A stretch of 63,904 bases of DNA, counting the filler, from Folioceros fuciformis (Eukaryota), in assembly GCA_049999805.1 (NCBI GenBank). It is 6 parts of 6 records of this genome, joined end to end, with 100 filler letters (N's around TTAATTAATTAA, not from the genome) between each part and the next. Parts side by side here need not be neighbours in the genome. Positions count along the whole stretch, not along the records: positions 18,892 to 33,552 come from JBNGIO010004056.1; 5 more parts are not named here. The stretch is one strand, 5' to 3'. The number at the start of each line of letters is the position of its first letter. Position 1 is the stretch's first letter. Positions 3,470 through 46,562 of the stretch are shown in pieces. The position numbers and the translations under genes were made by a program. Under the pieces are notes generated by a model. That model had not been told where the DNA came from and ran no database searches. It saw only the letters and a list, made by a program, of their open reading frames with translations.

Positions 3470-3703
3470 TGTGGGCAAGCGGGTGTGGTATCCCTACCAG
3501 GCACCCGCTCACATGTATCGTGGCCACATCAATCCCATGGTCCCCGGAATCCACATCTTCCCCGGAATTGCTCCCCTCTAAGCCTAGTTAGCTACGTATA
3601 TCGTTCCCCTACAATAGTCAACCCTCCCAATCACATACCTACCAATCATGCAACACGTCTAGTCAATAGGTAGGCACCATTCCTTCACTTCGAAGGGCTC
3701 CAA
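3470..3703 (-). mobile_element. Terminal fragment of an Athila-like LTR interrupting the Copia pol
   Basis: Begins TGTGG exactly where Copia homology stops; shares CCAGGCACC and GGCCACA with the terminus at 61626. Confidence 0.5.
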
Positions 3704-6700
3704 TGAAGATCGACAGGATCAAGAACGCTGAGATCAGGTGACCGAGAGGAAAGAAAAAGAATGAATATTTTGTAGGGTCATGTGTCAGTTTATAAAGGCG
3801 CGGGAGCACCCGTTGGTGGTGTCCCGTGGCCTAAGACCATTGGACGTTGGGACACGACCCTAAGTCATGTTGATACGAATCTGTCTATTCGTATCTAGCT
3901 AATTAGTTCAGTTTATTTAATTAGGGCCTGGCTATGTATAATTGCCAAACCTCCTTTTACTCCCACTTAGCCGGAAATAATTAACATTCACTACGGCCAG
4001 TAACTTCACTGAAGAGGGCAGGCTGATCATAAAGTATGGTATGTCCTTTAGAACTACTCCCACTCCAGGTGATGTCTCTTACCCGCATTCCTGAACCTGA
4101 TCTTCTGTGATGCAGAACCCTGGTATCTATGTTCTTCAACAATGCTGACTCGAAGGTTCCAGGCTGGAAGATTCCCTGCAGCTCAGTAGCTCCTGCAGCT
4201 TGACTAAGTGGGTTGTGCAGCTACGTATCTGGATTTACTGCTAGCCCTAAGGCTCTACAGAATTTTTCGTGCTTGTCACGAGGCAATGCTTTGCTTAAGA
4301 CATCTGCTGTATTTTCTTTTGTAGACACATATTGGAGACTAACATGACCTTCTGCCACCACTTGCCTTATGAAATGATGCTTGATCTCGATATGTTTGGT
4401 TCTAGCATGCATCACAGGATTTTGTGCTAATGCAATGGCTGACTGATTATCGTTGAGAAGCAAAGTTGGTCCCTCTTGTCTTTCTCCTAGCGAGTTCAGC
4501 AGCTCTCTTGCATGAATTATATCTTCGGCAGCAGTGGTAGTAGAGATGTACTCTGCTTCCGTCGAGGAGAGAGCCACCACTTGCTGCTTTTTATTGTGCC
4601 ATGCTATTACTGTAGACTGGAATTGGTCTTTTCCTAGCATAAGGCAATGAGCTGAGATGGACTTGCGGCTGTCTGAGTCAGCTGCCCAATCTGCATCGCA
4701 GAAACAGGTGAGCAGAAGGTTGCTTGGTCGTTTACTGTACAACAGCCCTAGATTTGGTGTGCTTCCCAGGTACCGCATAATTCTTTGCACTGCACTCCAG
4801 TGTGGCCTGCCATAGTTGGATAGAAACTGGGAAGTGACTCCCACTGAGTATGAGAGCTCAGGTTTGGTCCAATTGTGGAAATATATGGGAACACCAACAG
4901 CAGGTCTATACGGAATCAGCTCCATCTATTGTCGTTCTTCCTTTGTTTTGGGACACTAATCTAATGACAATTTTTCCCCGGCTGCCATGGGTGTAGGTGC
5001 AGGCTTTGCATTCTGAAGCCTGAACCTGGCAAGGACCTATTGTACAAATTGGCCCTGGTGAATAAATATGGTGTGCCTAGAGAGATTTTGATGAATTTGT
5101 ATTCCTAAGAAGAATGTTAGCTGTCCTAAGTCAGTCATAGAGAATTCTGAGGTCAGGATAGCTTTCACTCGATTTATTAGTTCAGGGCAGCTAGCTATAA
5201 TTACAGCATCATCGACGTATAGTGCAAGATATGCAACACCTTTACTGTCATGCAGTTTATAGACGTTTCAATCAGCTTCACTATGGATGAAGCTACTGCT
5301 TTTAAGGTATGCGTCAATCCTCTTAAACCACTCTCTAAGCGACTACTCAAGTCTGTAAATGGTTTTGATTAGCCTACATACCTTGTGAGAGTTTTGCAGA
5401 TCAACAAAGCCCTCAGGCTATCTCATATAAATTGTTTCTTCTAAATTGCCATTTAGAAACGCAGTCTTCACGTCCATGTGTTGTAGGCAGTAATCATGTT
5501 GGGCTACTATAGCCAGGAGAGCTCGAATGGATGATGCACGTACAACTGGCGAAAAAGTTTCCGTGTAATCAAGACCTGCAACCTGGTTGTAGCCTCTTGC
5601 TTCCAGCCGAGCTTTATATCTAGCAATGGCTCTGTTGGCATCAAGCTTGGTCTTGAAGACCCATTTACATGTAACTGCCTTTCTCTCACGTGGAAGATCC
5701 TCCAGCACCCAAGTTTTATTGTCCACCAAGGACTGGTATTCTGACTGAATAGCCTCCATCCATTTTTGTCCATCCTTAGAATTTAGGGCTTCTTGATAGG
5801 ACTGCGGATCACCAGTGTCGAGTGGTGTGTTGTCATCTTGGACTAAGAATGATTGATAGGTTAACGGAGGTTGCAGCCATTCTGAAGGCGAGGTGGTGTG
5901 ACGTCTAGTGCCCAAGTCTGTCCCTCTCCTGACTGGAACAGTGTCTGGTTGTACAGCAGGTTCAGCAACAGGCCCCTCCTCTTCTGAGTAAGCATCCCGC
6001 TGATCCTCCTGCTGTTCATCATCAGAAATGTTGTCCTGGCTGACCACATCATTTGCATTATTTCCATATTCGTGTGTGTGCAAGTCAGGTTCTACATCAC
6101 TGTCACCGTCAGGAAAATCAGAAGGCTCTTCATCTGTGTCATTGTTAGGATTTATATGACTAGGATGTGCTGTACTAGATTCTGAGGTTGGTGCAGATGT
6201 ATGGGACTCAGTGCTGCTGATCTTGACAAAGGGCTGACTGAAGAAACTTCTCCTACCACTGTGCGACTAGGAGATGGGTTCAACAGCAACTGCTCATTAA
6301 AGACAACGTTACGAGCATGGGTTATGGTTTGAGACGTAGGGTCATACAGCTTGTAGCCCTTGATGCCCTCTGTATAACCTATAAACACATACTTGCATGC
6401 CTTGTAGTCTAACTTAGCTTTGCGTTGTTTCTCAGAGAGGTGGGCATAGGCTGGAGACCCGAAGATACGCAAGTGATTTATCCGGGGCTATAACCTATCC
6501 ACCTATGGTAAGGTGTTGCTCCATCAAATGCTTTTATCGGGAGACGGTTTTTGATGTAAGCAGCTGTAGCCACTGCCTCCGCCCAATAGGTTCATGGTAA
6601 CCCAGCTAGCTTGAGCATTGACTTAGCTTGTTCTTGCAGGTGCTTATTGTTGAGTTCGGCAAGAGGATTTTGTGAGGACGTGTAAGGCACGGTTAGTTGC

Positions 6701-9334
6701 CTGCCTATCCCATGCGCCTCGCAATAATCCTTGAACGCGTTAGAGTAGAACTCACCTCCATTATCACCCCGCAAGATTTTTACAAGCTCACCTGTCTGCC
6801 ATTGGGCAAAAGTAACAAAGTCTTGGAAGCAGCCAAGAGCCTTGCTCTTGTGCTTGATCAGGTAAACCATAACATACCGACTCCAGCCATCCAGGAAAGA
6901 TAAGATGTACAGTGCTCCTCCCATGGATATTGTAGACATAGGTCCACAGAGATCCGTATGCACCAGTTACAGCAACTTGAAGGCTCTAGTGGGATTTTTG
7001 TCATTGTACGGAAGCCTATGGTGTTTCCCAAACACACAGGCTTCACAAAATTGCTTGTCAGTAAATTGCAGCATAAACTTCTCCCTGTAGAGGGTATTAC
7101 TAGCCACCATGATTTTTAGTTTCTCGAAGTTGACGTGCCCGAGCCTGCAATGCCACAGCATGGCCTGGTCTTTTTGTTTTGACGCTTGGGTGACGTTGAC
7201 ATGTGCGCCCTATTTGAAGACTCTCCCCTGTGGGAGGTACCCCTGCTTGCTTTGCGGGTTGACTCTTCCTTGAGAAGAGCACCAATAACATCTGAAAGTG
7301 TAACAGTTGGTTGGCTTCCTGGTTGAGCTACTTGTGCAACTTGGGCTGCTTGCCGGAGTGCTGAACTCTGATTGCTGACGAATGTGCAAAAGCTTTCAAG
7401 AAGAGAGAGAAGCAGAGCCACCGCAAGCTGCATCTCCGTGGTCTTGGTTCCACTTGAGGCAAGGTTGGACCTCAAGGTCCTGAATTTAATAATATGCTGC
7501 TCTACAGAGTCATGCACCCTCATTTTACAATTATAGAAGTCACGTGTTGCACTAACGAGTGAGGATCCATTGACAACTTGGTAGACTTGTGAAAGTGCAT
7601 CCCAAACAGCCTTTGTGGATTCTGCATCTCGAGTATGGTGCATCATTGTACCGTCCAATGCTGATTGTATGACTCCTAGGGCACAGAGATCTAGTTTGGC
7701 CCATGCCTCTCTATCAGGAAGTAGAGTAGTAGCAGCAGGTTTAGGGACAGTCCCGGAAACAACACCCCAAAGATCATTTTCCTTCAGGATAGTCTGAACC
7801 CTAAGTGCCCATATGTCAAATTGAGTGCCTGAAAATCGGTCACGTTCTTTGAAATCTATCTTGAGATTGTGAGCAGTAGTGTTGTTGGTAACTGTGCTAC
7901 CGTGCTGTTGACCAGCCATTGTGCCCACTACTTGTGCCGCTAATGCAGCCCTTGTGGCTTGTGCAAGACGTGCAGCTTCTATGTTTTGAGCTATTGCTAC
8001 AGCGTGTGCAACGTGCTGAACCTGTGCAGTGTGCAAATTTGCAGTGTTACTTGATTGGGACGAGGTTGGTTGGCTCTAGGTATGATAAAGGGAGAGAGGG
8101 TCTATAGGCAAGGAAGGACCACTACCGTACTAAGTTCCTCTCCCAGAACCTCTGCCCCTACCTCGGCCACAAGCTCTATGTGAAGGATTTGGATTTCCTC
8201 GAGCTCTTCCACTGCCTGACATATGCCGCTTACTCAAAGTGGTCTCCTAGCCTCTTCCTCCAGTGCAGCCAGGTGTTCACAGTCCTTAGCAAATGCCTCC
8301 TGCATGACTTTGATCATTTTCTCTAAATTTGACTATGGTTTTTGTTCTTCGGGTGAGATATGAATAGGTACAGTTGTCTTTCCTTGAAGAGACGCAGGTT
8401 TGTCAAGGGAGAGATTATAGATCTGATGAGACAGGCAGGTGATGTGTCTATTTTGTGCTTGAACCTTGTGGGTCAACTCTGAGATGTGCTGCCTAACCTT
8501 GACAGTTTGAGATTTTACAAGATCATAAATGTCAATGAGCAAGTTGTTTGACGGGCATGGAAAAGAATTAAGGTCTCTAGTACAAGTGTAACAAATACTA
8601 GAACGTACCTGCAGTTGATATTCAGCTTGTGCAGAAATGTCACGAGCGTGTGCAATTTGCTGTCTAACTTGACGACATAAATTGTGCAAGGGGTCGGGCT
8701 AAGAATGTTGCCTAATCATACCTACGTTGTGTGCGTGTGTAGGGCGTGCAGGGACTCGACAGTGATTCGTGAAGAAATGGTTCAGTCTCCTATGCTGTGA
8801 TTCAATTGTTTCATCCAGTCTGCCTGCAAAGGGGTCTGATGGCCGGTGGTTTCTCTGGCCCCTAGCTCTCGGCATAGAGCTGAGATCACGAGTAGTAGTG
8901 ATCAACAGCGCTAGCAAGGAAGACATCTGCCATACTTCCAAATCTTGTGAGTGCAACCTTCAATGCAGCAATTACAGCGCGAAATTGTTGATGTGGCAAG
9001 TTCTCGACACAATTTGCGCTGTTGCAGGTTGCGCAGATGATTGGAAGCCCGGCAGAGTCCATCATGACTCTGATACCATGAAGATCGACAGGATCGAGAA
9101 CGCTGAGATCAGGTGATCGAGAGGAAAGAAAAAGAATGAATATTTTGTAGGGCCGTGTGTCAATTTATAAAGGCCCGGGAGCACCCGTTGGTGGTGTCCC
9201 GTGGCCTGTGACCGTTGGACGTTGGGACACGACCCTTAGTCGTGTTGATACGAATCTGTCTATTCGTATCTAGCTAATTAGTTTAGTTTATTTAATTAGG
9301 GCCTGGCTCTATATAATTGCCAAACCTCCTTTTA
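3704..9334 (-). mobile_element. Ty1/Copia element with both LTRs, internally deleted and pseudogenised
   Basis: 256-bp direct repeats at 3704-3959 and 9079-9334 (about 14 mismatches by eye); PBS TGGTATCAGAGT at 9067-9078; PPT GGCTAAGTGGGAG at 3960-3972; gag 7116-8036, then integrase (HTDLCGP, DNGGEF), RT and RNase H (DADWA, KHIEIKHHFIR) in Copia order. Confidence 0.95.
8105..8875 (-). pseudogene. Extra ORF upstream of gag (ORF0), disrupted by in-frame stops
   Basis: ORFs 8699-8956 and 8333-8689 are in one frame, which continues through TAG/TGA stops to about 8105; ATG at 8875 gives MPRARGQRNHRP. Confidence 0.55.
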
Positions 9335-11359
9335 CCACCATATGTTGTCCAAGTTTTGAGTGTGTCCACCGATCTTCACATGCATTCTTGGCATCCTACA
9401 ATTCTTGAAGGGTTGCTTGCTCAAGGGCCACTACAGCAAGGTACATGTCTTGCATCTTCGATCAACACCACGCAGAACACCATACATTTTCTATAGTTGG
9501 TTGATTGAGTGGCCATGGTATTATGATGACTAGTAGTAACATGACCTCCTCCTTTGTAGGTTGTCACTCCATGCCTACTAGTATATCTTGCTTTATCATG
9601 GTTATGTTTGGTATTTTAGACAATGATAAGTGATCACACCAAGATTGTCACTAGCCATGCATGCCCACCTACGCCTTAGCCCCCCTAAATTTCTTGCTCG
9701 ACAATGCTCCCTATTTGTTGCGATGCACTTGTGGCTAATAGCTCATTACAACTTGTCTACATGCTAGGTGTTATGCTGGTGCACAAATGAGTAGCCATCT
9801 CAAAGCCTAGATAGGCCATTCAAATGGATGTATAGGCGAAGCCTACATCTTTGGTTTTTGTAGGTACCTACATGGAGTGTGCAAGCCTAGACGCAAAACT
9901 ATCCACCACTAGGGAACCTAATATTGAAAACACAATTGTAAGAGATTTTGGTAGCACATCCCACACTCATTATGGACCACATAGTAGCAAGGTTCAAGCA
10001 TTTGTTGGGTAGTGTTAGGAGCTAGCGGTGATGCTTACACCTAGGGTTTTTTTCTTGTGCCCAACCTTGCCATCCAATTTTTTTGCAAGCAATGCCATAA
10101 TACCCCTCCTCCTTCCAACACATGCATGTCTCCAATCCTCAAACATCCAATACCTCACCCCTCTGATCCTAGCGGGAGGTTTAAGAAAATCCCTATTGCG
10201 CTTCTCCTAGTGGTCCATTGTAAGTGTCTACTCTCCATGACTACAATGGAAATGTGAAGAAGTGAAGGGTAGGGATATTAGGCCTTCCAACTAGCAATGA
10301 GGATCCAACAAAAACTCGTGGCAGGCCATCCACAAGGTTGTAGAGGCACTAAGCCTATCAATCACCCACCCTCTAGGCCTAGCTCATTTGGAGTAAGTGT
10401 AAGGGATGCACTCCATTGTGCTAGGAAAAAGTATGAGGTAAGTCTGATATCCCTTCGGAGTAGAGATTGGTACTCATGGGATTAGATCTAGGAATTGTTT
10501 CACTCCAGCAACCACAAACTTGTGTGGCCACGAACCATTAAACCGATAGGCCCTAGGGGGTAGTTCAACAAATACATCTAGAGTGGACAAAAATTTACTA
10601 TATTCATGTAATAAAATATATAAAAATATATAGTTCAAATAGAGTATATGCTTGTTTAGTGCAATTTCCATATTGCTAAAGAAAAATATTTTCTCAATTC
10701 AGGAGTAGTGTAACAATGGGTGGAGCGTCTTCGCCCAACACTTGGCGAACTCTTCAAAGAAGCCCTACAAGAAAATCTCATTCTTACGAAGACACGTATC
10801 CAGCATTGGAACCACAGGTTTCTAGGAAGAACATACTGTATATATATACGCCCACATAACATATACATATATTATAAATAATTACTCACCCAATAAATAG
10901 TCTTCTACTATGTAATGCACTTACTATGCAGCATGTAGCTCTTGAGATTTGTAACTCGATGATAGCAACTATTAGAATTTTCCTTCCTTATACCCACAAC
11001 AATTGAGGAGCCCTCCACACTCATCCCACTTAGTAGCTAATCTACGCTTCTTCATTTCTCGGTATTTTCTTAGGTTTTAGCTTGGCTCTCAATGTTACAT
11101 TCGTGTTCTTGGGAATATTGCAACTTGTTGGCCTACATGGCTCTTCTAAACCACTAAATTTTGGGTTAATGGTTACTTTTGGTTTGGAAAGGGCTAAATG
11201 TGGCTTAGTCAGGTTTTCCTTTTTTTTCCTTTCCTTCGTCTTTATCTTATTTTTATTTTCTCTCTAACTTTTTCATTTTGTTCACCATCAATTAAGCTAG
11301 CTAACAAAGTGATAATTAAGCTTACTGACTAGGTTGTGACACCCATCCTTTACTTGCCT

Positions 11360-23769: not shown

Positions 23770-24016
23770 GTCATAGCTTAATCTCCTGCCATAGGGCTCG
23801 AGCATAGTCACAACGAAAGAAGATGTGTTGATTTTTTGTGAGCCACATCCGCAGTACATAATCGGTTGAACTCTTCTCCGATTGCCACCACCAAGCCTGA
23901 AAGAAACACCATACCATGATATCGACCTTGGGGGTATGCCTTTCGAACCCTAGAGACCCTTGAGCAACGCCTATTGTGGATGCCAAGCAATGCCAATCTC
24001 CGTGCTTGTCAGTTTG
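23770..24016 (-). mobile_element. 3' end of an L1/Tx1-like LINE ORF2 (zf-RVT remnant)
   Basis: HIFFRCDYARALWQEI; continues at 30976-32370 on the other side of the Copia insertion. Confidence 0.65.
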
Positions 24017-24355
24017 TGATAATAAGCGGAAGCTTGTTGTAAACATTGAATGAATTAATCAGATACAAAATCGTGTATGTTTGAATACTTACTAAAGTAT
24101 CTACTCACTTTAACCTAACTAGCAGTAGGTTATAATTGGTTAATCTATGTTAGGATATCTTTTATTACCCTTAACACTCCCACTTAGCCGTATACACAGA
24201 TTAATGATTAACAACCATTAAAACTCGTTACGCTTGGGCTACACGGGTTTCTCCACGACTGAAGGGATCGGGCAGTTATTACTCCCACTCTTCAAAAGTT
24301 ACACCTACTCTTGTGATTGTCATTCGTGACTCGTGCGGCTTCAAGGCTGTGAGCT

Positions 24356-25080
24356 ATGGAGCCGTTTCTGGCTGTCTTTATATGCGTGCTCACCACACTT
24401 CTAACATGCAGAGTTGAAGCAGTGCAGATCAGCAAGATGGCGCCAACCAAGAATCGCGTTATGCCTCGCCAAGAGCAACCTCTTGTGCACCAACCTGGAA
24501 TAGGTCATCCAAGCTCAAGTCTAATGAAGACTGAAGACACTGAAGAACCCTCACTTCCAGATTCTCAGCGACGACCAACTATGGCTGACGGGAACATGTT
24601 CTGTCACCTACACGCTGTTCTGAAGAAGTGCGACAAGTTGAAAGAGGCTCTAAAGGAGTCAAGCTGCAGACTGTATGAGTTGCAGGAGTTGCTAACTCCC
24701 ATGCCTGATCCTAAGGATCTTAACCATCCTTTGACAGAGATAGAGTGTCAGCACTTGGTGTAGGAGCTAATCCTGATGGGTTACGTTGAAGAGGTTGACG
24801 GTGGAAAACCTTACAGTCCCACTCACGTTTACTGGTAAGCGACTGAGACTGCTACCATATAGTTTCCTGCAGATAGTTTATGCTTCGTACTCTAACTTGT
24901 TGGCTTCATCCACTAAACTGTTGCTACCTGAATTTGCCTGTATCATGAAGGACAACAACGGGAAGATATTTGAGCAGAGAGGCTGGGAGTCTGGACCTCC
25001 TTAACCATTCGACAATAAACACATCAAGTCCTTGGGTTTCTTCATCCTTCCCGTAGGGCAAGTAATGGCCTCAAGTTGTA
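24356..25080 (+). pseudogene. Antisense ORF between RNase H and the 3' LTR
   Basis: 135-aa ORF with hydrophobic N-terminus (MEPFLAVFICVLTTLLTCRVEA); apparently continues past a TAG and a frameshift into 24786-25004 and beyond. Confidence 0.5.
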
Positions 25081-28000
25081 GAAGAGGGAGTAGGCATAAC
25101 AAAATCCTTCAGCCCAAGAGCTGCCACATGTCTGTAGTGCTTTGTCTCAACAAGCCCCTTAGTCAAAACATCGGCAGTGTTGCTGTTTGTATGTATGTAC
25201 TCAACTTTTACAACTCCTCTTTCTGCTGCATCACGTATAAAATGATGATACAACTCTATGTGTTTTGTACATGCATGAAATCTTGGATTCGAGACCAAGG
25301 CAATGGCACTCATATTATCGCAAAAGAGTTGGGTTGGTTCCTTCTGAGGTAAGTGAATACCATCCAGGAATTGCCTCTCCCACTCCGCTTCCTTACAAGC
25401 ATCTGTTAAGGCTTTATACTCAGCTTCACTACTTGACAGCGCTAACGATGCTTGCTTTTTATAGGACCAATTTATAGATCCTGACGCTAGTTGAAACACA
25501 TAGCTAAAAGGCTCCATTTGGTATCGGCATCTGAAGCCCAGTCGGCATCAGCCCAAGAGGTAAGTACCATCTATTTATGTCCACTGGCTGTATAATGCAA
25601 GCCAAGATGAATTGTTCCCTAAACATATCGATAAATCCTCTTGACAACAGCCTGGGCATTTGAGAAATTGACTAACAATACTCAGTGCATAGGAGATATC
25701 GGGACGAGTCCAGTTGGCAATGAAGATAAGACAACCCACAGCCACAGCATAAAGGTACAGCTTGCATGTCAGCAAGATCTGTAGCAGTTGTTGGGGATAT
25801 GTCTGCTATTAGCTTTACTCCCACTACTGACGGAGTGGATACAGGACAAGTAGCATCAAGACCAAAATGTTTCAAAATCTCCTTGAGATATTTAGTTTGA
25901 TGTAGTATAATTGCTCCAGCAGGCCTATCCCGTAGGATCTGAATTCCAAGGCAAAATTGTAATTCTCCTTGGTCTGTCATCTCAAACTTTGCTCAAAGCA
26001 AGGCCTTTGCCTTATCTAACATTGAGGTACTGTTACTCAAAAGGATGGCATCGTCGACATAAAGGGCAAGAATAACAAAGACGGCCTCTTTTGAGAAATA
26101 AAACACATTGGAGTCTGCCCCACACTGCACAAAGCCCTTCTGCTTTAGGTACTTCATAATTTGTTTATATGAAGCCTGAGGGCTCTGTTTCAATCCGTAG
26201 AGTGTTTTCAGGAGCTTACATACTCGCTGAGGCCACTGGGTACTAACAAAGCCCTCTGTCTGCTCCATGTACAGGACCTCATCCAGCTCACCATGGAGAA
26301 ACGCTGTACAAACATCCATCTAATGAACCTCAAGGTCAAACTCTGCAACCATAGCAAGTAAAATCCAAATAGATGGTGGTTTAACAACAGGAGAAAACGT
26401 CTCCCCATAATCCACTCCAGGCATTTGGCTAAACCCTCTTGCAACTAGTCGAGACTTATAGCGAGCAATTGTGCCATCAGACTTTAGCTTTGTTTTAAAC
26501 GCCCACTTACAAGTGATGGGTTTACGTCCAGAAGGTAAGTCCACCAATTCCCACGTATTGTTCTTAATTAAGCTATTATACTCCTCATTTATACTAACCC
26601 TCCAATGATCACCATTAGGGCCATTGAGGACTTCACTGTACGAGGATCAGGCCTCACTTCTGGGACATAAAAGTTTGCCATATATGCTGATTTTCGAAAA
26701 TCAACAGACTCATATGGTACTTCTGTCCATTCTGACCTTGGCCTCCGTTCTCTAACTGGATAACGTGGAGAAGGAGGTTCAGCAGGAAAGTCAACTCCCA
26801 CTGAATCTATTGGGTCTGATATATCATCTTCACCACCATCAGAACTATCAGACTGTGAGCCATCGCCAGTCATAATATTTGAGTCAAGGCCTTCATCAGG
26901 GCCGACAGGTGGATGAGAACCAGTATCCTCATCAACCTGAACATCTAAAGCTGCCTCTTCACCATCCGAATTAGGATACTCATCTGGTAAAGGTGGTTGA
27001 ACAACAAGCAATACAGTACTAGATGAAGCAGATATTAGAGCATCACCAAAATAGTCAAGGGTTACCTCATTATCTGAATCATCCTGTTCAACAAAGGTAA
27101 CATCTCCCTCAAGTTCTTCATGTGAAGAATCTGATCTAGGAGAGGTAAGTTCACAAAACGTGACACTTCTTGCAAGCACTACCTTATGAGTTTGAGGATT
27201 AATCAACTATTAAGCCTTACTCTCCTCATAGTAACCTAAGAAAAGGTAAGGAATTGCCCTGTCGTCTAACTTCTTCCTTCTTTCTGCAGGAACATATACA
27301 AAGGCAGAGGATCCAAACTCTCTTAAGTGATTTATACTGAGCTTACGTCCCCAGAACACTTCATAAGGGGTCCATCCTCGAACAGTAGATGTAAGTAGCC
27401 TATTCAGTATATATATTGCAGTAGTAATGGCTTCAGCCCAATACTTTTTAGGTAATCCCGCATAAGATAGCATACTCCGAGTCATGCCCATAAGTGTCTG
27501 GTTCTTACGTTCAGCAACACCGTTTTGCTGTTGTGTGTAAGGTACAGCCAGTTGGCGAATGATGCCACACTTTTTAAACAGCTCATCATATTTGTAGCCA
27601 ACAAACTCACCTCCATTGTCTGTTTTTAAGCATTTTACCTGGCAGCCGGTTTGGCGTTGAACCATGACAATCCAAGATGAAATCTGATCAAAAGCATCAC
27701 TTTTGTGTCGCAATGGGTAAGTCCAAGTGTATCTTGAATAATCATCAGTGATTGTTAGATAGTACTCAGCACCTCCGAATGACTTAATTTGTAGTTTTCT
27801 AGCTATGTCAGCATGTACCAACTCTAACAAGGATGTTAACAGCCCTTGTGGCATTCCTATTTTTTAAGGGTAGTTTTTTTCTGTTTGGACAGGACACAGG
27901 AATTGCAAACAGGAAGTGATTTGAAGCATGATGACAACTTCTCTTTATAACAATCTAACGCTGATATAAGGTCAAGTTTGGTTTTATTTACATGACCTAA

Positions 28001-29904
28001 TCTAGCATGCCACAAACTTAGCCCGATTAATCAAAGTGACTGCATAAGCTCGTTCTAACCTCTTGGATGTAGTGAACAGCTGGTACAAGTCGCTAACTAC
28101 TGCAGCTTCTGCTACATGATGGTCTAAATCATCTAAATTGTAAATGTAACAGTGGTTAGCTTCAAAACAGAAACCATACAACTGACTACTTGTAATTGCT
28201 CAGATGGAGAATAGGTTCTTCGACATGGAGGGCACATAGAGGACATCTTCCAACTGAAGTGTTCCTCCACTCATTAAAGGTATGACTACCCATCCAATAC
28301 CTTTAACTACAACTCCTCGAGCATCTCCCACTTAAACTAACTGTGGTGAGGTTGTGTTCCAAAAAGTCGTGAACAATTGCCGGTTGTTGCAAACATGTGC
28401 AGAGGCACCTGATCAATAAACCACACCGATGAAAGCTCACGTGTAGCAGTGAAGCACACAGGCAAGGATGTTGCAGCACTCTTGTGTGAAGGTAACTTTG
28501 AGTTCTTCACAGCAACATGAACTTGTGATACTTTCACATCCTTCTTAGGATTACCAGCTTGCTTCTTACGACAGTCGCGCTCCCAATATCCAGGGATGCC
28601 ACACCAGTGGCAAGTGCCAACTCGTTTAGCAGTTGAGGACGAAATGGAGGTAGGTTTCTTTCCTCCTTTATATGTCCCCTTCCCAAACATTTTGCCCTTG
28701 GCTGCTAACAGCACTTTTTCACCTCGATTTCTGGAACGGGATTTAGACTTGTGATGGCTTTGCTCCTCTTGCAGGAGTGCGCCAATCACATTGTTGAGGT
28801 TGATAGTCGCCGGTCGACCAGCAGCAATAGCAATATATGAAGACTAAAGAGCAACATTCTATTCAGAAATGAAGGTTTGATAGGTGGGAGGCAAATTGCC
28901 AAGCAATTGAGCAACAACATCCACTTCGGACATTATGTTGCCAAGCGTAGCAAGCTATGCCCTTAGGTACCAAAACTTGGTTATATGTGCTCCCAAACTA
29001 TCCCCTTCCTTCAAACGCAAGCGATAGAATTGATTACGAACAGAGACCAGCGTCAATATATTTTGAACCTGGTAAGTGTTTTTAAGTTGCTCCCACACAG
29101 CAGCAGCTATAGGCACGCTTTCAACTTCTGTAACTGTAGTTTCTCCAAGGCTTGAAAGTATGATAGCAAAGGCCACCTTGTTCCCTTTGACAAACTTGTC
29201 TTTAACATCTTGGGGATTGATCGGTGCAGGAACAAGAATCGAGCCATTGGCATACTCCCACACATCACGAGCATCTAGGAATGCCTTCATCCTAGCTCGC
29301 CAGCTTTCATACTTGGTATGAGTACCATCAAAACGGTCTTTTTCCTTGAATTCGCCTTCGAAAGATGCAGTTTGCATTGTTGTCATTTGTGCAATAACAA
29401 TAGGGAGAACAGGTGTAGGAGGAGCAATGATGGAGGAAATTTGAGAAGTTAGAGATTGCAAAAATGACGCCTCTATTTCTGGGTCTGTGTCAGGATCACT
29501 ATCAGTTTCTTCAAAGAGAAGTGAGAGACCTAACATACAGAAAATGTTTATGCATTCATGCAGAGAATACGTAGACGCATCAAATGTTTGCAGGGTATTA
29601 ACTAATAAAAAAACAAATTAATAACAAATCAGAATCGAAACACCACTCCGAAACGACATGGAGATTCGAAACGGTAAGCAAGTGAGCCATAGAAACACCA
29701 AACGTGCCCTAACTTACAAGTTTAAGGATATGACAAGTTGTATGCTCATGACAGGTGTACATAATCTAGGAGCAATGTGCCTACGTGTACATGAAACCAA
29801 CCGTCAGTCATGCACAAGGCGCCTGTTGGTGGCTGGCTGCAAACAGTGCCTGGAGTGGTGAGCTCTGTCCACCTCCAGCTGCAGCACGCCTCTCACCAAT
29901 CCAA

Positions 29905-30495
29905 TCAGGCCGCCTCTGAAGCATCGTACTCGCAAATCGGAGGCGACAGCGTTGGTAAGTACAAGGTAGCTTGAGAATCCATCAGCGAGAGTCCTGGGTC
30001 TGAAACTCTAAGAAAACACGCAATTCTCTGAATAGTCACAGTTTGCACTTGAGAAGTCTCAGAATGCAGGCGTAGATCCTTCGTGAGAGCGGCAATCATT
30101 CGAATTGCTGAATCAATCTGAAAGGTGAGATCTGATCTTGTTCTAAACAGCAGAAGCCAAGTGTCTCGAATGCAACCATCAATTGCTAAACGAGTCACTT
30201 TCAGAATTGAATCTTCATCTTCACAGGGTGACAACACTCTTGATGGTCGTGTTGCTAATCCTCATCTTGAGCTTGGACACAGATTTGCACAACAGATACA
30301 GGAACGCTGATTCCTTTGTTCACCACGTGATATCTCCAATTTTTGAGATACTCTGGGGATGAATGCCTTGCATGAGATTTGTTTAGAGATTCTCCTTGAA
30401 GAATCCTCAAGGTATCTATTTGTGGTAGAAGTCAATTCAGTTTTAAATTCACCTACGCATGGAACATGATGCCTATTTCTAGACCTACGTGTCAT
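29905..30495 (-). pseudogene. Extra ORF upstream of gag (ORF0), one in-frame stop
   Basis: ORFs 30262-30495 and 29905-30237 share a frame (about 196 codons); starts MTRRSRNRHHVPCVGE. Confidence 0.6.
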
Positions 30496-30719
30496 CCCTG
30501 CTGCTCAAATGGGACCAACATAGTTTAATATGTATAATGAACCCATCATAGCTAGACTCATCAAATGCTGTCTAGTGGACATTCCAACATTGCTCAGCGT
30601 GCATAAATGAATGCACACTAAGCTATGTTAAAAGACACCTTGTCTCATCTAGAGCACAGCATCTGCTCTATTTTATAGAGTAGCCTAAATCTATGTACAA
30701 TTGAGCAGCATGGATCAGA

Positions 30720-30871
30720 GAGCCAAAGCTCTGATACCATGATAATAAATGGAAGCTTGTTGTAAACATTGAATGAATTAATTAAATACAAAATCGAGCC
30801 AAAGCTCTGATACCATGATAATAAATGGAAGCTTGTTGTAAACATTGAATGAATTAATTAAATACAAAATC
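30720..30871. repeat. Exact 76-bp tandem duplication spanning the LTR end and PBS
   Basis: 30720-30795 equals 30796-30871; PBS copies end at 30739 and 30815. Confidence 0.92.
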
Positions 30872-30975
30872 GTGTATATTTAAATACTTACTAAAGTGTT
30901 TATTCACTTTAACCTAACTAGCAGTAGGTTATGACTGGTTAATCTATGTCATGATATCTTTTATTACCCTAAACG

Positions 30976-32370
30976 GTTTACGCTCTTTATGCCTCTGGGA
31001 GCAAACCAGGCAATAATACACATGAGAAGTATGGAAGTTAAAGAAAGTCCTGGAATCGGCTTTACCATTCTTCTTCCTTGTAGGCCACCTAAAGAGGTCA
31101 GGACGAAGTGTCAAAGCCCAATTCTCCAACAGATGGAACCAGCATAGTGTCAGAGCCTTGAAGAAGGGGTTGCGCTATTCTGCCACCTCCTGAGGGGTGC
31201 GCCATCTTCCTGCTCTCAAAGTTGGCAAGAGAACAGTAATTGGGCACAACTCCTGAATGTCAACCTCTCTATCTTCATGACCCCCCTTCTCGAGAGCGCC
31301 TGAGGGAGAGAGCACTTTAAAGGATTTAGCCAATCAACGCTTGCCATTGAGCAAGACCTAAACTACTCTATCAAGCTCCGTGTGGTTATGCCCAAACTCG
31401 AAATCAAACCCCTCCTCTACAGCCTCCCAGGCAAACGCCCCCCACGCACCATTGGCCACGACCCCTTGAGTCTCGAGCACTTGGTGGGCTTCCACCTTCA
31501 ATCCTATTTGAATCCACAGGAATTTTGCCTAAATATGCTTCAATGGAACTGTGAACTCCTCCCTAATCACTTCCCATTCTTTCCAACACGCTTCTAACCT
31601 GTTCTAGAGATGACTGACCAGGTACAAACCTTTGCGGCTCGCTGCCCCTAGGATTTGGCAGCAATAGGCGTGAGGTCTGATCTCCGATTCCCACAGCCCT
31701 TGAAAGCTCTATAAGGGAAGACCCAAGATATTGTCTACACCCCCAGGTGGAGCTTGGATTATAAATCTTTTGACCTCAAGGTAGCTGGCCAAAATAGACT
31801 TGAAGAGAGAGGAGCACTCTCACACATCCAATAAGGAGTGATCTGTAAGGATGTTCTCCACTGCTTTCCTACCTTTGGGCACAACACGAGTACAATCAAG
31901 GTGGTGCAAGAGGAAACTCTTCCAAGGGTAGGGAGACAGGTCCGCCGCCTTGACAATCCATTGAGCATGTAGGGCCTTCGTCTTGCATTCCGGGTCAACG
32001 AGACCCAGTCCCCCTATTCTTTTGGGTTGGATCATATGGTGCTAGGCCACTCTGTGGTTATTCCTGAAAAAATCCCCCGTCTTGCTTCAAAGGAAGTTTG
32101 AGATCACTTGGCACAACTTTTTCAAATCCTACTTTGATGGAGCCCACAAGAATAAACAGTACCACAGTGAGGTAGTAAGGATATGGTTGATCACCACAAT
32201 CCGGCCCACCAAATTCATGTCAAGGAGCTGTAGACTTGTTGCTTTCTGAATAAAATAGAGGCATAAATTTCCTCATTCTCGTCTGACTCTTGAAAGGGCA
32301 ACCCCATATATTTGTGTGAAGCCCTTGCTTGAATCCTTGAGATGTGCTTAATGCACTCTAGAAGATCCCT
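30976..32370 (-). mobile_element. L1/Tx1-like LINE ORF2 fragment
   Basis: HKYMGLPF, IGGLGLVDP, KALHAQWIVK; homologous to 46563-47320. Confidence 0.85.
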
Positions 32371-33671
32371 CCTATTGTCGCCCCTGAAGGCGGAGCGTAC
32401 GGCAACGAACAAGGCGACAAGGAAGCGAGCTAAGAGGAGTAAGGGAACTCAGCTTCACCGGAGTGGCGAGCGGACCAATGAGTCTGACCGGGCGACTCAC
32501 CATGACGGTGAGTGTGTGGCACCAATAGGCGACTCCGTCAAGGGGAATGGGTGTCATGAGAGAGGGATGAGAAGAGGGAAGTGGAGCAGGCAGCGGTGTA
32601 GAATGGGTACGAGAGTGTGGGACATAGGCTGTCCACTCACTAAATCAAAGTTCCAAAAGAACACACCAGATTGGAAGCTTACCTTAGGGATTTGTTCCCA
32701 ATCAGTCGTTGAAGTGAGGTCTGTCGGGTTTAGGGTTTAGGGTCATTCTACAGTTCCTGCAAGCGGCCTCCAGGCTCTACCAGCTGGAGGGGAATAGCAT
32801 TGTGGGATTGCTCTTACAATCCGGAAGATTGCTCCTCCAATCGCAATCGGTAGGTTAGCAAAGCCTGTCTAGGACGACCGGACTAGTAGTTGGATCCAAT
32901 GAGCCAAGTCTTATGGTGGGATGGTTGGGGCTACTAGGTGTTGTTCGTTCATCCATAGGAGTTGGCTCCGCCAGCAAAGTTTCCACCGTCTCAATTAAGA
33001 CTCAGAGTAACTTCCCATGGAAGAAGGCATGGCTGTCATCCAATTGTTGGATGGCATCGACTACCATTCTCAGAAGGGTTCTGTACTTTGGTCGCCATCT
33101 CACTTTCGGGAGATTAGCATGCTGGGCAGTGACAGTGTTGACGTACCGACAGAGCTCTTCCAAAGCAGCGAAGGTGATCGTCACCGACTCCCAAAGAGGT
33201 AGAGCGGATACAGCTTTTACATGAGCTTGGAGCAAGGCGACCTCACGTTGGTCCTCCAGGTCTCGAAGTCGGCTAGTTGCGCCTGCAGCTCTTCCAACTT
33301 GGTCCAAAACCCAATCACTCAATCCACGAGCTGCTTTCTCTCCTCCTCCCAGACTTGTCCATCACTTTGCATGGTGTCGAGGGTCTGGGAGAGTTCGGCC
33401 TTCAGTGCTCGAACCTCATGGTGGGCGGCCTTTTCCACCATCTGCAAGGTCCGTAATTTGTGTTGAAATAGCACCACAGGCTTAGAAGGACTCCACTGTT
33501 CCTTTTTTATGGTGCACAGGATGCTACATATATAGCCTTCAGGCGGGGCAACNNNNNNNNNNNNNNNNNNNNNNNNNNNNNNNNNNNNNNNNNNNNTTAA
33601 TTAATTAANNNNNNNNNNNNNNNNNNNNNNNNNNNNNNNNNNNNNNNNNNNNCTTATGTGATGGTTGGCAG

Positions 33672-38626: not shown

Positions 38627-41600
38627 TTACCAATAATCTCTGCAAGAGCACTCCCCGTCCTTGAAGTGATGAAAGCGACTGACGTCCCTTGTTACAATCG
38701 TCCTCCCAGTAACCTTAGATATGTACTTGGCAGCGTTATGGCAGTCTCCACACATTCGTAGGTTCTTCAAGATGAGAAGAGGTGTTCCTGGGGCAGTGTT
38801 GATGAGGGCAAAAGCGATAGCCAGCTTCTCACTGTGATAGCGTAGGCACCTTTCCTTTTCCTCTTCGTCAACATCATGGAGCACAAAGCTCGTGTTCGGC
38901 ACATAGCCTGCCTCTATGATTGTGCTGATCAGCTTGTCTAGTGTGTCGTAGATGATGTCAGTCTGTGGATGTCTCTTGTCTTCTGCAAAGAAAAGATGAA
39001 TTTCGTTTCCGATCTCCGTCCAACTGCATCCTGGATTCTTCTTCAACCCTTTGTCCTTCAACAGTCTTCTCACTGCAACCTTCTCCCTCCACATCCCTGC
39101 GGCAGCATAGGTGTTGGCCAGCAACACATGCGCTGCGTCATGACTGGGGTCCAGCTGCAGGACCTTCTCTGCAGCATACTCCGCTATTCCAACATTGCCG
39201 TGAAGTCTACAGGCACCAAGCAGCGCCATCCAAACTGCGATACCCGGTTGCGCTGGCAGGTGGGTGATAAACTCCTCAGCCTCGTCCAGCCTCCCAGCTC
39301 GGCCAAGCAGATCAACCATGCACACATGGTGACCTTCTGTAGGGCTGATGCCGTGATCTAGGATCATGGACGTGTAGTAGCTGCAGCCTTCCTTCACCAA
39401 TCCAGCATGGCTGCAGGCTGCGAGGACAGTCACAAATGTAATGTAATCCATTTCAACTTCCATCTGCCGCAAGTGTTCGAAGATCAATAGAGCCTCCTTG
39501 CTCCGACCATGCTGCGTATATGCTGCCATCAATGCATTCCACGATATGATATCCCGCCGAGACATGTTATCAAAAACCGTTCGTGCCATATCCAGCCGAC
39601 CACACTTGGCATACATGTCCACCAGAGCATTGTTCACAAAAATGCGTGACCTGTGGCCACTCCTGTCGATCATAGCGTGGATTCGCCTGCCCTCTCCAAG
39701 AACTGCGAGATTAGCACATGCGTTCAGGACGCAAACGAAGGTAACGTCAGTGGGCTGGACACCCTTCTGTAGCATTTCTTTGAACAGCTGAAGGGCATCT
39801 CTCTCTCGTCTGTTGTGAATGTAAGCTGTTACCATAGCAGTCCATGCAACAGCATCTTTATCCGCTATGCCATTGAAGACCTGGAGTGCATCCTCCATGC
39901 TCTCACACTTGCCATACATGGTAATCAAGGCAGTACAGACGCAGAGGTCAGATGCAAACCCACAGCTGGAAGCATGACTATGCATCTCTCTGCCCTCCGC
40001 CAGCGATGCTGCATTGCCACAAGCGTTCAGAACCGAGACTATGGTGCCTGAATTTGGCTTCACCTCTTCCTGCTGCATCTCCTCAAACAGACAAAGCGCC
40101 TCCTTCGCAAGACCATGATCAGCATAGCCTGAGAACATGGATGTCCAAGAAATAACATCCCGCTTCGGCATTCTATCAAATACTGCACGTGCACCTGCAA
40201 TGAAGCCGCATTTGGAATACATGTTCACCAGGGCCGACCCAACAAAGATCTGCGATTCAAATCCGCGACTTCGAACATAGGCGTGAAGCTGCTCTCCATC
40301 TTCTAGAGCCCCCAAGCTTGCACATGCGTTCAGGATACCAACGAAGGTAATGGAGCTCGGTTTCACTCCCTTGTACAGCATTTGCCTGAAAAGCTGAAGG
40401 ACCTCCTCGTTGTATCCATGACGGGAATATCCTCCGATCATAGCATTCCATGACACAACGTCTCGTGTCCGCAAATTATCAAACACGGTTCTTGCAGCCT
40501 GCAGGTTCCCACTTTTCGAATACATGTCCACCAATGCATTGCACACATACAGGTCAGACTCCCATCTACTCCTTGCAACCTGGGCATGTACCTGCTTGCC
40601 AAATCCGCCATCTGCCATAGAGGCACATGCATTCAGTACAGCAACGAAAGTCGACCCGTCAGCATTCACTTTTGCTTCCTGCATCTGTCTGTAAAGTCTG
40701 AGAGCCTTGGAGCCCTCCCCGGATCGTGTATATCCAGCAATCATTGTATTCCAAGATACTACATCACGTTCGTGCATTTTATCAAACACTGATGATGCCT
40801 CCACCATGCTCCCACCTTTTGCATACAAATCTAGCAGGCAGTTGTCCACAACAACATCCGTCTCTGACCAAACTTTATTGATCTCTGCATGCGTCTGCCG
40901 GCCCTCTTGGATGTCCCCGAGAATTGCACACGCATTCAGAACAACAGTGAACACAAACTTGTCTGGCTTAACGCCTTCACCCTTCATGTTCTTGTAGAGG
41001 TCCAGAACCTTGTCTGCTTGACCACAATTAAGATAACCCTTCATTAAGGCAGTGAATGTGAACACGTCATGCCTGGACATTTGATCAAATAAACGGCGCG
41101 CAGCCAAGACCTTTCCCCAGCTGGCATACATTCTCACCAGACTGCACGCCAGCAAAGAGTTCATCTCTAGGCCACTCTTTCTGATGTGAGCATGGACTTG
41201 CATGCCATCCTGCCAGGCCCTCCTCTTTATGCATTGTTGCAACAGACGGTAATATATATCAGGATGGGCCTGCATGCCCTGATGCTCCAAAGCATTCAAT
41301 GCCCGGACACATTCACTCAAACGTCCTCCATCGCACAGGATGCTTACATCTGCAGGTGTCATCCACAAGCCTGACCTATCGACCCCCTTGCTTGAACTGC
41401 CAGAATGGTAATCAGCAGCATAGTTTCAGCGGGACGGTCTGCATCACCTGACCACAAAGTGAACGCTTGCATAAAGACAGCCCAGACAACGAGCAAATAG
41501 AAAAGGCACCTTAAGCAAACTATCATGCGCACCACCCACCAATCGAACAGTTCTATTCAGGATACTGAAGACTCACATGCCCATCAAGCTGCCTTCGACG

Positions 41601-45888: not shown

Positions 45889-46562
45889 CCTATGTTGGAA
45901 GAGACTCGCTGCAAAAGAGCCTCAGTCTCCTTCTGTCTGTCATTGAATTTCCTGTCAAAATCGATGCTTGACTTCTTGTTAAAATACTGACATCCTGAGC
46001 GGTGGTCACAGGTATTACTTTTTCTACTCAACTCACTGCTACTCGAAGACTGTCTTAAAGAAGAGGAAGGGCTACGACATGACAAACCTTGTAGCCTAGA
46101 AAAATCTAGAGAGGGGATGTTTTCCCTAACATTGGGTACATAGTACATGTTTCTATTTTTCCGAGGCATTTCAGAGTAGTGGAAAATTGAGGAATAGGCT
46201 GCTCATATCCATTATAAACACTAAAAGTGCTCTGCGCAGGCTGGCGAAGAAGAATTTTCAGCCAATCTCTACCTTCATATTTCGTGAAGGTGGAGGTAGG
46301 CTGAAAACCCTTCCTTCACTCGCTGTGCCTAGCACATTGTGTCTAAAGTGGATAGATTACAGCGAAAGACTCAGAGCATCAAACTCTGCTCTGATACCAT
46401 GATACTAAACCTTTTGACATAGAACACAAAAAGAATGTTGTATATCAAAAAGTAAAAGTGTTCAATAAACAATAGTCTTATATAGTCTTAAGTAAACCCT
46501 AGGTTAAACTAACTAGCCTAACCTGTGAGGTTAACTAACCAAGGGTTAACCAAACCCTAATA
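45889..46562 (-). mobile_element. 5' end of a Copia-type element: LTR (46400 to about 46562), iMet PBS (46388-46399) and ORF0 start (ATG 46169)
   Basis: TGGTATCAGAGC abuts a short AT-rich LTR that interrupts the LINE ORF2; downstream ORF starts MPRKNRNMYYVPNVRE. Confidence 0.8.

Follow-up and report, generated by a model that had tools for sequence, protein, structure and literature searches.

Extra reading frames in the leaders of LTR retrotransposons

The extra genes of LTR retrotransposons are the nearest thing that plants have to retroviral accessory genes and their functions are almost wholly obscure. Leader splicing is known from retroviruses and from RTBV and CaMV, with the major donor of the retroviral and pararetroviral leader located shortly past the PBS, and Ogre elements need the splicing of an element-borne intron. 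Additional ORFs at the 5' end have been described in Tekay chromoviruses (Ty3/gypsy), e.g. sunflower Tekay 13-2 and rice RIRE3, RIRE8 and Retrosat-2; according to the available portion of that study the Tekay ORF is ~400 aa long, is intact in 500 of 523 elements, has no amino-acid similarity between species and combines basic NLS-like motifs and few helices with otherwise disordered sequence (PMC11728184). In Ogre elements, which form part of the Tat lineage of Ty3/gypsy, ORF1 is upstream of gag and in 57% of cases contains a plant mobile domain, as given in the accessible text of the REXdb paper (PMC6317226). The same survey, by Neumann et al. 2019, identified extra ORFs in 582 Ty1/copia elements, which formed 45 highly heterogeneous similarity groups, and the only lineage-typical Copia extra ORF reported in the text available from it is located 3' of pol, namely the SIRE eORF-3'F found in 74% of elements (PMC6317226).

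The window analysed here, a 63.9-kb stretch of DNA from Folioceros fuciformis, contains three minus-strand Ty1/copia 5' ends (E1, E2 and E3), in which a reading frame termed ORF0 is situated between the PBS and gag. The original prediction treated 5' extra ORFs as a hallmark of Ogre elements and knew of none as a feature of a Copia lineage; the Ogre part stands, but as an Ogre-only premise it was incomplete, given the Tekay ORFs (PMC11728184) and the extra ORFs of Ty1/copia (PMC6317226), as far as the accessible parts of these papers go. Like the Tekay ORF in the available text (PMC11728184), ORF0 would be a sense-strand frame located past the 5' LTR/PBS and before gag, with no recognisable domain, no relatives among known proteins, and basic NLS-like stretches and a few predicted helices in otherwise disordered sequence. 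However, Tekay is Ty3/gypsy, whereas E1 and E3 are Ty1/copia with integrase before RT, and the frames here are of ~180-200 codons with no intact copy in the window. The likeness to Ogre is in the position of ORF1 upstream of gag (PMC6317226, available part), but Ogre is a gypsy element of at least 20 kb and its intron is within pol, whereas the intron predicted here would be in the leader. The leaders also resemble those of retroviruses and pararetroviruses in their length, in their many short ORFs and in a donor-like site ~100 nt past the PBS, although retroviruses read gag from unspliced RNA and here splicing would bring gag near the cap. The REXdb survey, as described in its accessible text, set a threshold of at least 250 codons for extra ORFs (PMC6317226) and would thus have missed the frames of E1 and E3, which are only 196 and 180 codons long even when stops are read through. 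No SIRE-like 3' ORF was detected, there being no minus-strand frame of at least 90 codons in 24176-25070 (E1) or 3966-4220 (E3).

It is an even call whether ORF0 is what remains of a 5' extra ORF, a putative accessory gene, specific to a lineage of Ty1/copia. A conserved 5' ORF in Copia, if true, would mean an origin of this architecture separate from that in the gypsy elements Ogre and Tekay. The copies in the window are all decayed and their value is as a specific, cheaply testable lead.

Element class and layout of the three loci

The features on which the comparison is based are as follows.

E1
30816..30975, minus strand: 5' LTR of 160 bp, 91% identity to 24017-24175 over 159 nt
30804..30815, minus strand: distal copy of the PBS, TGGTATCAGAGC, exact match
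30728..30739, minus strand: proximal copy of the PBS, exact match
30637..30641, minus strand: AAG/GT donor-like site, exon would end at 30639 and intron begin at 30638
29905..30495, minus strand: ORF0, 196 codons with one in-frame TGA, terminal stop 29905-29907
29620..29904, minus strand: stop-rich spacer separating ORF0 from the gag frame, no frame having fewer than 3 stops
29602..29620, minus strand: pyrimidine-rich acceptor-like AG (29603-29602), exon would begin at 29601
28955..29536, minus strand: N-terminal part of gag, a 193-aa ORF and then broken, PF14223 (E=1.8e-15) and PF13961
25071..28843, minus strand: pol remnants (integrase then reverse transcriptase) with many stops
24017..24176, minus strand: 3' LTR, preceded by the polypurine tract GGCTAAGTGGGAG

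E2
46388..46399, minus strand: PBS, exact match, with the LTR end TAGTATCA just upstream
46271..46275, minus strand: AAG/GT donor-like site, 113 nt past the PBS and upstream of the ORF0 ATG
45889..46169, minus strand: start of ORF0, 94 open codons, cut by the contig end
45789..45888, no strand: contig-join linker N44-TTAATTAATTAA-N44, one of five such in the window

E3
9079..9340, minus strand: 5' LTR, 94-95% identity to 3703-3965 (94.6% over 258 nt)
9067..9078, minus strand: PBS, TGGTATCAGAGT, 1 mismatch
8956..8960, minus strand: AAG/GT donor-like site, exon end 8958, 107 nt past the PBS
8336..8875, minus strand: ORF0, 180 codons with one in-frame TAG, a further in-frame ATG at 8926
8076..8095, minus strand: pyrimidine-rich acceptor-like AG (8077-8076), exon would begin at 8075
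7116..7919, minus strand: gag, an intact 267-aa ORF (ATG 7919), PF14223 (E=1e-25)
3703..3965, minus strand: 3' LTR, preceded by the polypurine tract GGCTAAGTGGGAG

The three loci are Ty1/copia elements from at least two families, the pol of E1 and that of E3 sharing ~45% amino-acid identity. Their assignment to Copia was borne out by the paired LTRs, the PBS and the location of integrase upstream of RT in E1 and E3. On the minus strand both have the domain order gag (PF14223), rve with SH3_retrovirus, then RVT_2 (PF07727), which is the Copia-type order, and the Ty3/gypsy order, with RT before integrase and an RT of the RVT_1 type, was absent from both. The E1 domains are found at 27213-27863 (rve and SH3) and, as pieces of RVT_2, at 25675-26646. 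E1 and E3 have the polypurine tract in common, whereas the only LTR-element signals of E2 are the 5' LTR end and the PBS; the sequence beyond its linker is another contig, with host genes. The 5' LTR of E1 ends in TTATCA and is flanked, with its partner, by a 5-nt repeat (TAAAC/CAAAC) matching at 4 of 5 positions. In each element the 12-nt PBS adjoins the LTR, and sites of this type occur 5 times in the window at no more than one mismatch, against 0.45 expected (none of 100 shuffles reached 5); the match is exact in E1 and E2 and has one mismatch in E3. We take it to be a match to the complete initiator tRNA-Met at its 3' end. The PBS of Bryco, Osser and part of Gymco-II is described, in the available text of the REXdb paper, as complementary to a half-molecule of tRNA-Met (PMC6317226).

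The leader from PBS to gag is unusually long, at about 1.15-1.2 kb. An ATG had been placed 190-235 nt past the PBS in each element and was measured at 232 (E1), 218 (E2) and 191 nt (E3), with the peptides beginning as originally quoted: MTRRSRNRHHVPCVGE (30495), MPRKNRNMYYVPNVRE (46169) and MPRARGQRNHRP (8875). It is preceded, after the PBS, by 10, 5 and 4 further ATGs in E1, E2 and E3 respectively. That gag starts later and in another frame was likewise found, with 959 nt (E1) and 956 nt (E3) separating the ORF0 ATG from the gag ATG; the relative frame is identical in the two (+2), ORF0 ends ~370-420 nt before gag and a stop-rich spacer precedes gag in both. What did not hold was the description of each ATG as opening a non-gag ORF, for all three copies are interrupted or cut and there is no intact ORF0 in the window. 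The frame at 29905-30495 has an in-frame TGA at codon 78 (30262-30264), that from the E3 ATG at 8875 stops after 58 codons (TAG 8699-8701) before continuing for 121 more codons in the same frame, and E2 has 94 codons before it runs into the linker. Breakage extends beyond ORF0 to gag and pol in E1 and to pol in E3. With one break per 180-196 codons the decay of ORF0 is no worse than that of the E1 RT, where there is an in-frame stop about every 108 codons.

Conservation, coding signal and relatives of ORF0

The N-terminal alignment of E1 and E2 in the original prediction proved to be far beyond chance. The two 16-residue starts have a BLOSUM62 score of 41 and are mutual best matches among all six-frame 16-mers of the window, the next-best scores being 29 and 27 (BLASTP E=0.003 for the start pair). 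This likeness begins exactly at the ATG in both elements and defines a basic motif, M-P/T-R-K/R-x-R-N...V-P-x-V-x-E, at ~190-230 nt past the PBS. Otherwise the E1 and E2 leaders share only the 22-nt stretch at the PBS and a weak 21-nt match on the opposite strand (blastn E=0.005), and tblastx found no match between them outside the start. Whether the start is conserved as DNA only has a divided answer: identity at codon positions 1, 2 and 3 is 10, 12 and 6 of 16, the third being lowest as in coding sequence, but among 584,888 leader pairs compared as nucleotides the 48-nt start ranks first as well (28/48), so it may instead be conserved as DNA or RNA. The E3 start is not significantly like the other two, against which it scores 14 and 10, and the whole-ORF0 proteins of E1 and E3 are not significantly similar (BLASTP E=13), so a single ORF0 gene common to the two families is unsupported. 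The Cys cluster and helical region ascribed to each frame are shared loosely and statistical support is absent.

The ORF0 frame has a single stop over the 196 codons of E1, where the other frames have 17 and 10, none over the 94 of E2 (4 and 13) and a single one over the 180 of E3 (5 and 17). Near-open spans of this kind were matched by 11 of 2000 shuffles for E1 and 36 of 2000 for E3, and an open frame as long as that of E2 by 114 of 5000. Among real windows of the same length that are not obviously genic, 64/332 for E1 and 58/368 for E3 have a frame of that length interrupted by no more than one stop, so that openness is a weak statistic by itself. Of 500 shuffles for each element, 7 for E1, 3 for E3 and 31 for E2 had a period-3 signal as strong as that of ORF0; the E1 spacer had none (179 of 500 shuffles reached it). 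Codon usage was scored with a measure trained on the Copia genes of the window, which ranked the true frame first in all 18 leave-one-out tests. By this measure the frame of ORF0 came out best of three in the C-terminal halves of E1 (+0.114) and E3 (+0.018), and coding-like codon usage was absent from the N-terminal halves and from E2. Conservation of the start at the ATG, near-open frames, period-3 and the equal spacing and frame of E1 and E3 together favour a once-intact ORF, and the evidence leans towards such a sense ORF upstream of gag and past the PBS, in the E1/E2 lineage at any rate.

Searches for relatives began from a library of 5.8 billion proteins, in which none of 48 candidates passed for E1 ORF0 (with X at the stop, at near lengths) and there was no candidate for E2 ORF0. 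With phmmer against 1.84 billion representatives one match (E=1.1e-4) was obtained, to a tandem-repeat protein, and was rejected as spurious. A control search with E1 gag gave one match only (P0002, 62% identity), from which it appears that the protein libraries are without this species' copies; the negatives for ORF0 are consequently silent on conservation within the family. Pfam gave no family for the ORF0 of E1 or E2 at E up to 10; a Tup_N assignment for E3 (E=0.042, with a score of 14.6 bits where the cut-off is 28.7) was discarded as coiled-coil noise. Single-sequence AlphaFold2 predictions had a mean pLDDT of 30.0 for E1 and 49.4 for E3, neither usable for a fold search, the E3 model consisting of three long low-confidence helices. 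The C-terminal half of E3 ORF0 had a low recognition value (1504) and no meaningful neighbour in the ESM Atlas. Scans of metagenome and viral sequences based on gag found no relative, and Rfam gave 0 matches on the whole window.

Hundreds of contig pieces from DNA runs, at least 80% alike, cover the ORF0 region as deeply as gag, so the leader belongs to a multi-copy family. The pieces carry 2598 differences and 136 indels in total; no difference was found at the E1 TGA among the 40 listed, and with only these listed the TGA may not be private to this copy. One 613-nt piece over ORF0 has 97 mismatches and 0 gaps and pieces over the spacer have 14-17 gaps. A 488-nt piece from beyond the last pol ORF to be recognised, in sequence that is possibly coding, is likewise gap-free, for which reason the gap-free piece over ORF0 carries no weight.

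Leader splicing and alternative explanations

The first AG/GT past the PBS is in every case an AAG/GT, at +87 (E1), +107 (E3) and +113 (E2). In E1 it is the sole AAGGT in 1401 nt of leader and is upstream of the ORF0 ATG. Of 20,000 shuffle sets, 0.66% had the motif in all three segments and 0.05% had it there at positions no more than 27 nt apart. DNA alignment around the three sites revealed no wider conservation. At the other end pyrimidine-rich AG sites are located where the gag frame opens. The E1 site at 29602 has 11 pyrimidines in 15, is 5 codons into the open stretch of the gag frame (from 29617) and is 65 nt before the gag ATG at 29536; that of E3 has 12 in 15 and its AG is within the TAG that bounds the open stretch of the gag frame (7116-8075). 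The splicing idea put forward originally gains a measure of support from this donor-like AAG/GT, which is conserved in position across the three leaders. For an in-frame or 5'-UTR intron the E1 acceptor at 29602 is better placed than the one proposed at 29530, although the latter is in the same phase. The composition profile showed no clear intron-like AT shift, with the exception of a U-rich tract before the 29602 acceptor, and the presumed-RNA run X4 placed only one 35-nt piece, with 5 mismatches, on the window. Together the donor-like and acceptor-like sites suggest a predicted leader intron whose removal would take out ORF0.

The main competing explanation, which is on balance unlikely but deserves weight, is that the leader is non-coding, either as a 5'-UTR intron or as a structured region, with near-open frames due to chance and the 48 nt either acting in cis as RNA or DNA or opening a short regulatory uORF. 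Long untranslated leaders are found in some Copia elements, e.g. BARE-1/Angela, and the many upstream ATGs, the lack of homologues of ORF0 in the protein libraries and Pfam, the N-terminal halves devoid of a codon-usage signal and the bracketing of the whole region by donor-like and acceptor-like sites would all fit, as would the counts of equally long frames with at most one stop in real windows and the top rank of the start as a nucleotide match. It accounts less readily for a conserved stretch that begins at the ATG in E1 and E2 with third codon positions least conserved, for frames that, once fixed by the motif, contain 1, 0 and 1 stops against 4-17 in the others, for a period-3 signal in the ORF0 of E1 and E3 that is missing from the E1 spacer, and for the ORF0-to-gag distance and relative frame that E1 and E3 share. 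That ORF0 is a piece captured from a host gene or from a different mobile element, by transduction or nested insertion, is far less credible. Capture is documented for LTR retrotransposons (PMC7264820), but ORF0 has no similarity to any protein or family in the libraries searched, is as multi-copy as gag and occupies the same place, equally spaced and in the same frame relative to gag, in two families whose pol is 45% identical.

Splicing might also act differently, the start peptide being the first coding exon of Gag, joined to the gag frame, and the rest of ORF0 an intron read through. The phases permit this at several points: in E1 the acceptors 29602 and 29530 share their phase with an AG/GT at 30455/30454, 14 codons and 1 nt into ORF0, and with the AG/GT at 30639/30638, and in E3 an ATG at 9065, the donor 8958/8957 and the acceptor 8076/8075 are all phase 0 and in the gag frame. 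The gag frame is moreover open for 27 (E1) and 52 (E3) codons before its first ATG, and the E1 gag stretch from ATG 29536 to the inner ATG at 29386 is conserved with P0002. However, an in-frame junction has a 1-in-3 chance each time, the MPRARG exon of E3 (phase 1) would be out of the gag frame via either acceptor, and the AG/GT inside ORF0 is at a non-conserved position across E1, E2 and E3. Both E1 (29536) and P0002 have an ATG just upstream of the conserved gag stretch, which is thereby explained without splicing, and 100-120 further open codons are left unexplained. We regard a Gag exon as very doubtful.

On the reading of ORF0 as an extra gene, active elements would have carried a sense ORF0 of ~180-200 codons in a long leader. 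Its product may have been a fast-evolving, arginine-rich, partly helical accessory protein, nucleic-acid-binding or nuclear, and perhaps comparable with the proteins that Tekay and Ogre encode in their 5' extra ORFs. Gag-pol would be translated from RNA lacking a leader intron that holds ORF0, with its putative donor at the AAG/GT ~100 nt past the PBS and its acceptor just before gag. The case would be more interesting if ORF0 were inside such an intron with the donor just past the PBS, and the protein, if real, would offer a candidate RNA-binding or anti-silencing factor that is small and tractable. A bolder version, which is improbable as a whole, envisages a land-plant Copia clade with a retrovirus-like split leader: a donor ~100 nt past the PBS, a ~0.9-1.0 kb intron holding ORF0, an arginine-rich, cysteine-containing, helical ORF0 protein made from unspliced genomic RNA, and gag-pol from spliced RNA, the protein acting on RNA, e.g. 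by helping to export from the nucleus or to package the genomic RNA that retains the intron, or by suppressing silencing. As a minor point on the E1 leader, the distal PBS copy is inside a perfect 76/77-bp tandem duplication at 30720-30872.

Three Copia elements and their leaders

E1, the element under study, is a Ty1/copia element on the minus strand, as are E2 and E3. Its domains run gag, integrase and RT from 5' to 3', all with many stops. A target-site repeat matching at 4/5 positions and the polypurine tract GGCTAAGTGGGAG were found, and the PBS is present in two copies, derived from a perfect tandem repeat that takes in the final ~52 nt of the 5' LTR, the PBS and the 12 nt past it. E3 belongs to a second Copia family with the same polypurine tract, an intact gag of 267 aa and a broken pol; its pol has ~45% amino-acid identity to that of E1, and the two leaders have no nucleotide similarity. 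Of E2 the window has just the end of an LTR, the PBS and 499 nt of leader, the contig ending at 45889.

30975-30816 and 24176-24017, minus strand: LTRs of E1, 160 bp, 91% identical
30720-30872, minus strand: perfect 76/77-bp tandem duplication in E1, spanning LTR end and PBS
9340-9079 and 3965-3703, minus strand: LTRs of E3, 94.6% identical
46388-46399, minus strand: PBS of E2

An ATG-initiated ORF of 135 aa lies antisense to E1 on the plus strand (24353-24763), between the pol end and the 3' LTR; it had no Pfam match, and its position recalls the extra ORFs that some gypsy elements carry in antisense on the 3' side. A partial minus-strand Copia copy (540-3389), with ~65% nucleotide identity to the E1 pol, stops ~300 nt short of the E3 3' LTR, and no gag or leader of that copy was found beyond E3.

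Reading frames between the PBS and gag

The original prediction was of an extra reading frame, ORF0, opening between the PBS and gag in each element. The three ATGs and their peptides were as described, lying 232 (E1), 218 (E2) and 191 (E3) nt past the PBS, and gag does start in another frame (+2 relative to ORF0 in both cases) 959 nt (E1, 29536) and 956 nt (E3, 7919) past the ORF0 ATG. The claim of open frames fared less well. E1 has an in-frame TGA at codon 78 of 196, E3 has a stop after 58 codons with the same frame running on for 121 more (180 codons with one TAG), and the ORF of E2 amounts to 94 open codons before it is cut, the text translated past that point being another contig with host genes. 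The ORF0 start is preceded by 10 (E1), 5 (E2) and 4 (E3) upstream ATGs, and the spacer before gag holds several stops in every frame in both E1 and E3. A start of the E1 gag at ATG 29536, not at the inner ATG 29386, is supported by P0002, a gag from another data set that is 62% identical to the E1 gag: the E1 residues encoded ahead of 29386 can be aligned to its N-terminus.

The frame set by the start motif contains 1 (E1), 0 (E2) and 1 (E3) stops, and other frames contain 4-17. Shuffled sequences reached the observed near-open span in 11/2000 (E1), 36/2000 (E3) and 114/5000 (E2) cases. With a harsher null, made up of same-length windows of real sequence lying clear of recognised genes, the span was reached in 64/332 and 58/368, so openness is weak by itself and the weight for ORF0 rests on its coincidence with a conserved start. 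A period-3 signal, a measure partly tied to the scarcity of stops, was reached by few shuffles for ORF0 of E1 (7/500) and E3 (3/500), was borderline in E2 (31/500) and was absent from the E1 spacer in the shuffle test. A codon-usage score computed without stop codons chose the true frame in 18/18 known Copia segments; in E1 and E3 it favoured the ORF0 frame over the C-terminal half of ORF0, and it gave no signal in the N-terminal halves or in E2. ORF0 has one break per 180-196 codons against roughly one stop per 108 codons in the E1 RT, and breaks no denser than those would be the look of a frame open at insertion.

The predicted N-terminal likeness of E1 and E2 was upheld: when every 16-mer from six-frame translation of the window is considered, the two are mutual best matches, scoring 41, with the next best at 29 and 27. 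When ATG-initiated 16-mers were compared all-against-all (2,536,878 pairs), 52 pairs scored at least 41, the best 40 of which (score at least 47) came without exception from repeat copies, Copia pol homologues or PPR repeats. By BLASTP the E-value was 0.003, and the likeness is beyond chance. It starts exactly at the ATG, and elsewhere the two leaders share nothing besides the PBS and one weak 21-nt match on opposite strands. Identity at codon positions 1, 2 and 3 is 10/16, 12/16 and 6/16, a pattern of the kind expected of translated sequence. The conserved 48 nt may nonetheless be a cis-element, since at the nucleotide level, too, they rank first among 584,888 leader pairs. The E3 start shares just 'MPR' and basic residues with the other two, and ORF0 of E1 and E3 have no detectable similarity (E=13).

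Searches for ORF0 found no protein, family or fold in protein libraries which, as a gag control indicated, lack this species' elements, so that these negatives exclude only a widely conserved protein. In DNA sequencing runs mapped on the window the ORF0 region was multi-copy to the same degree as gag, and none of the 40 differences listed, from 2598, fell inside ORF0. Run X3 showed mostly C>T (414) and G>A (508) differences on 23900-31200, unlike X1 and X2 from the same sample, and looks like a bisulfite-type library.

A possible leader intron and known extra ORFs

The first AG/GT past the PBS is AAG/GT in all three leaders, at +87, +107 and +113, in each case upstream of the ORF0 ATG. Of 20,000 sets of shuffled segments, 0.66% had AAGGT in all three, and in 0.05% the sites were no more than 27 nt apart, although these are not clean P-values, the pattern having been sought after the splicing idea was formed. 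At the opening of the gag frame E1 and E3 each have a pyrimidine-rich AG site, and E3 has no ATG in the 156 nt ahead of its gag ATG.

29603-29602, minus strand: acceptor-like AG of E1, five codons into the open stretch, 65 nt before the gag ATG
8077-8076, minus strand: acceptor-like AG of E3, within the TAG bounding the open stretch

A leader intron between the donor-like and acceptor-like sites would be ~1.04 kb (E1) or ~0.88 kb (E3), and its removal would take out ORF0 with most upstream ATGs and bring gag near the cap. Through splicing, gag might instead begin at an exon-1 ATG, as the intron would set such an ATG in the gag frame in both E1 and E3 (a 1-in-3 chance each); this reading is rated low because in both E1 and P0002 the conserved gag N-terminus already has an ATG at its start.

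The analysis establishes the Copia identity of the elements, their architecture, the conserved start and, in each of the three diverged leaders, a near-open frame. Active progenitors would have encoded a ~20 kDa protein with an arginine-rich N-terminus, some cysteines and helices in its C-terminal half, which probably evolved fast, like other extra-ORF proteins as described, and gag-pol expression would have needed splicing-out of the ORF0-bearing leader segment. By analogy only, the protein might have bound RNA, acted in nuclear targeting or suppressed silencing.

Extra ORFs are reported to sit upstream or downstream of gag-pol, most commonly between pol and the 3' LTR (2020 review, PMC7264820). 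In Ty1/copia, Neumann et al. (2019) recorded 582 elements with extra ORFs of 250 codons or longer, which fall into 45 similarity groups, the SIRE 3' ORF being the only Copia one named there as lineage-typical (PMC6317226). 5' extra ORFs are known in Ogre and in the Tekay chromoviruses, those of Tekay being described as encoding proteins with NLS motifs, a few helices and no between-species similarity (PMC11728184). The literature searched held no account of a 5' ORF typical of a Copia lineage, which does not prove absence. ORF0 is a possible further case of the known 5' extra ORFs, not a new category, its support being decayed copies only.

Host genes and repeats

The DNA is that of a land plant, in separate contigs joined by five six-frame-stop linkers (N44-TTAATTAATTAA-N44); features spanning the linker points are artefacts. 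When 120 open frames, ~100 codons or longer, were scanned with Pfam, several host gene fragments were identified beside a PPR-E-DYW gene, amid Copia and LINE remnants.

18792-18891, 33553-33652, 45789-45888, 55190-55289 and 62671-62770: linkers
38627-41362, minus strand (38630-41425 in the Pfam scan): PPR-E-DYW gene, intron-less, intact, 911 aa, of organelle RNA-editing factor type

The plus strand has a PBS-like TGGTATCAAAGC at 14516-14527, with 1 mismatch; no Copia gag was detected downstream in the scanned open frames, and a zf-RVT (LINE-type) fragment follows (15478-15831). A minus-strand repeat unit is present in two copies ~3.2 kb apart (55690-56372 and 58808-60103) with similar open frames, one coiled-coil-like, that matched no Pfam family above threshold. 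Beside N runs lies a direct repeat of 300 nt (62761-63060 and 63333-63632, spacing 572 nt) whose copies are 100% identical; it looks like an assembly duplication.
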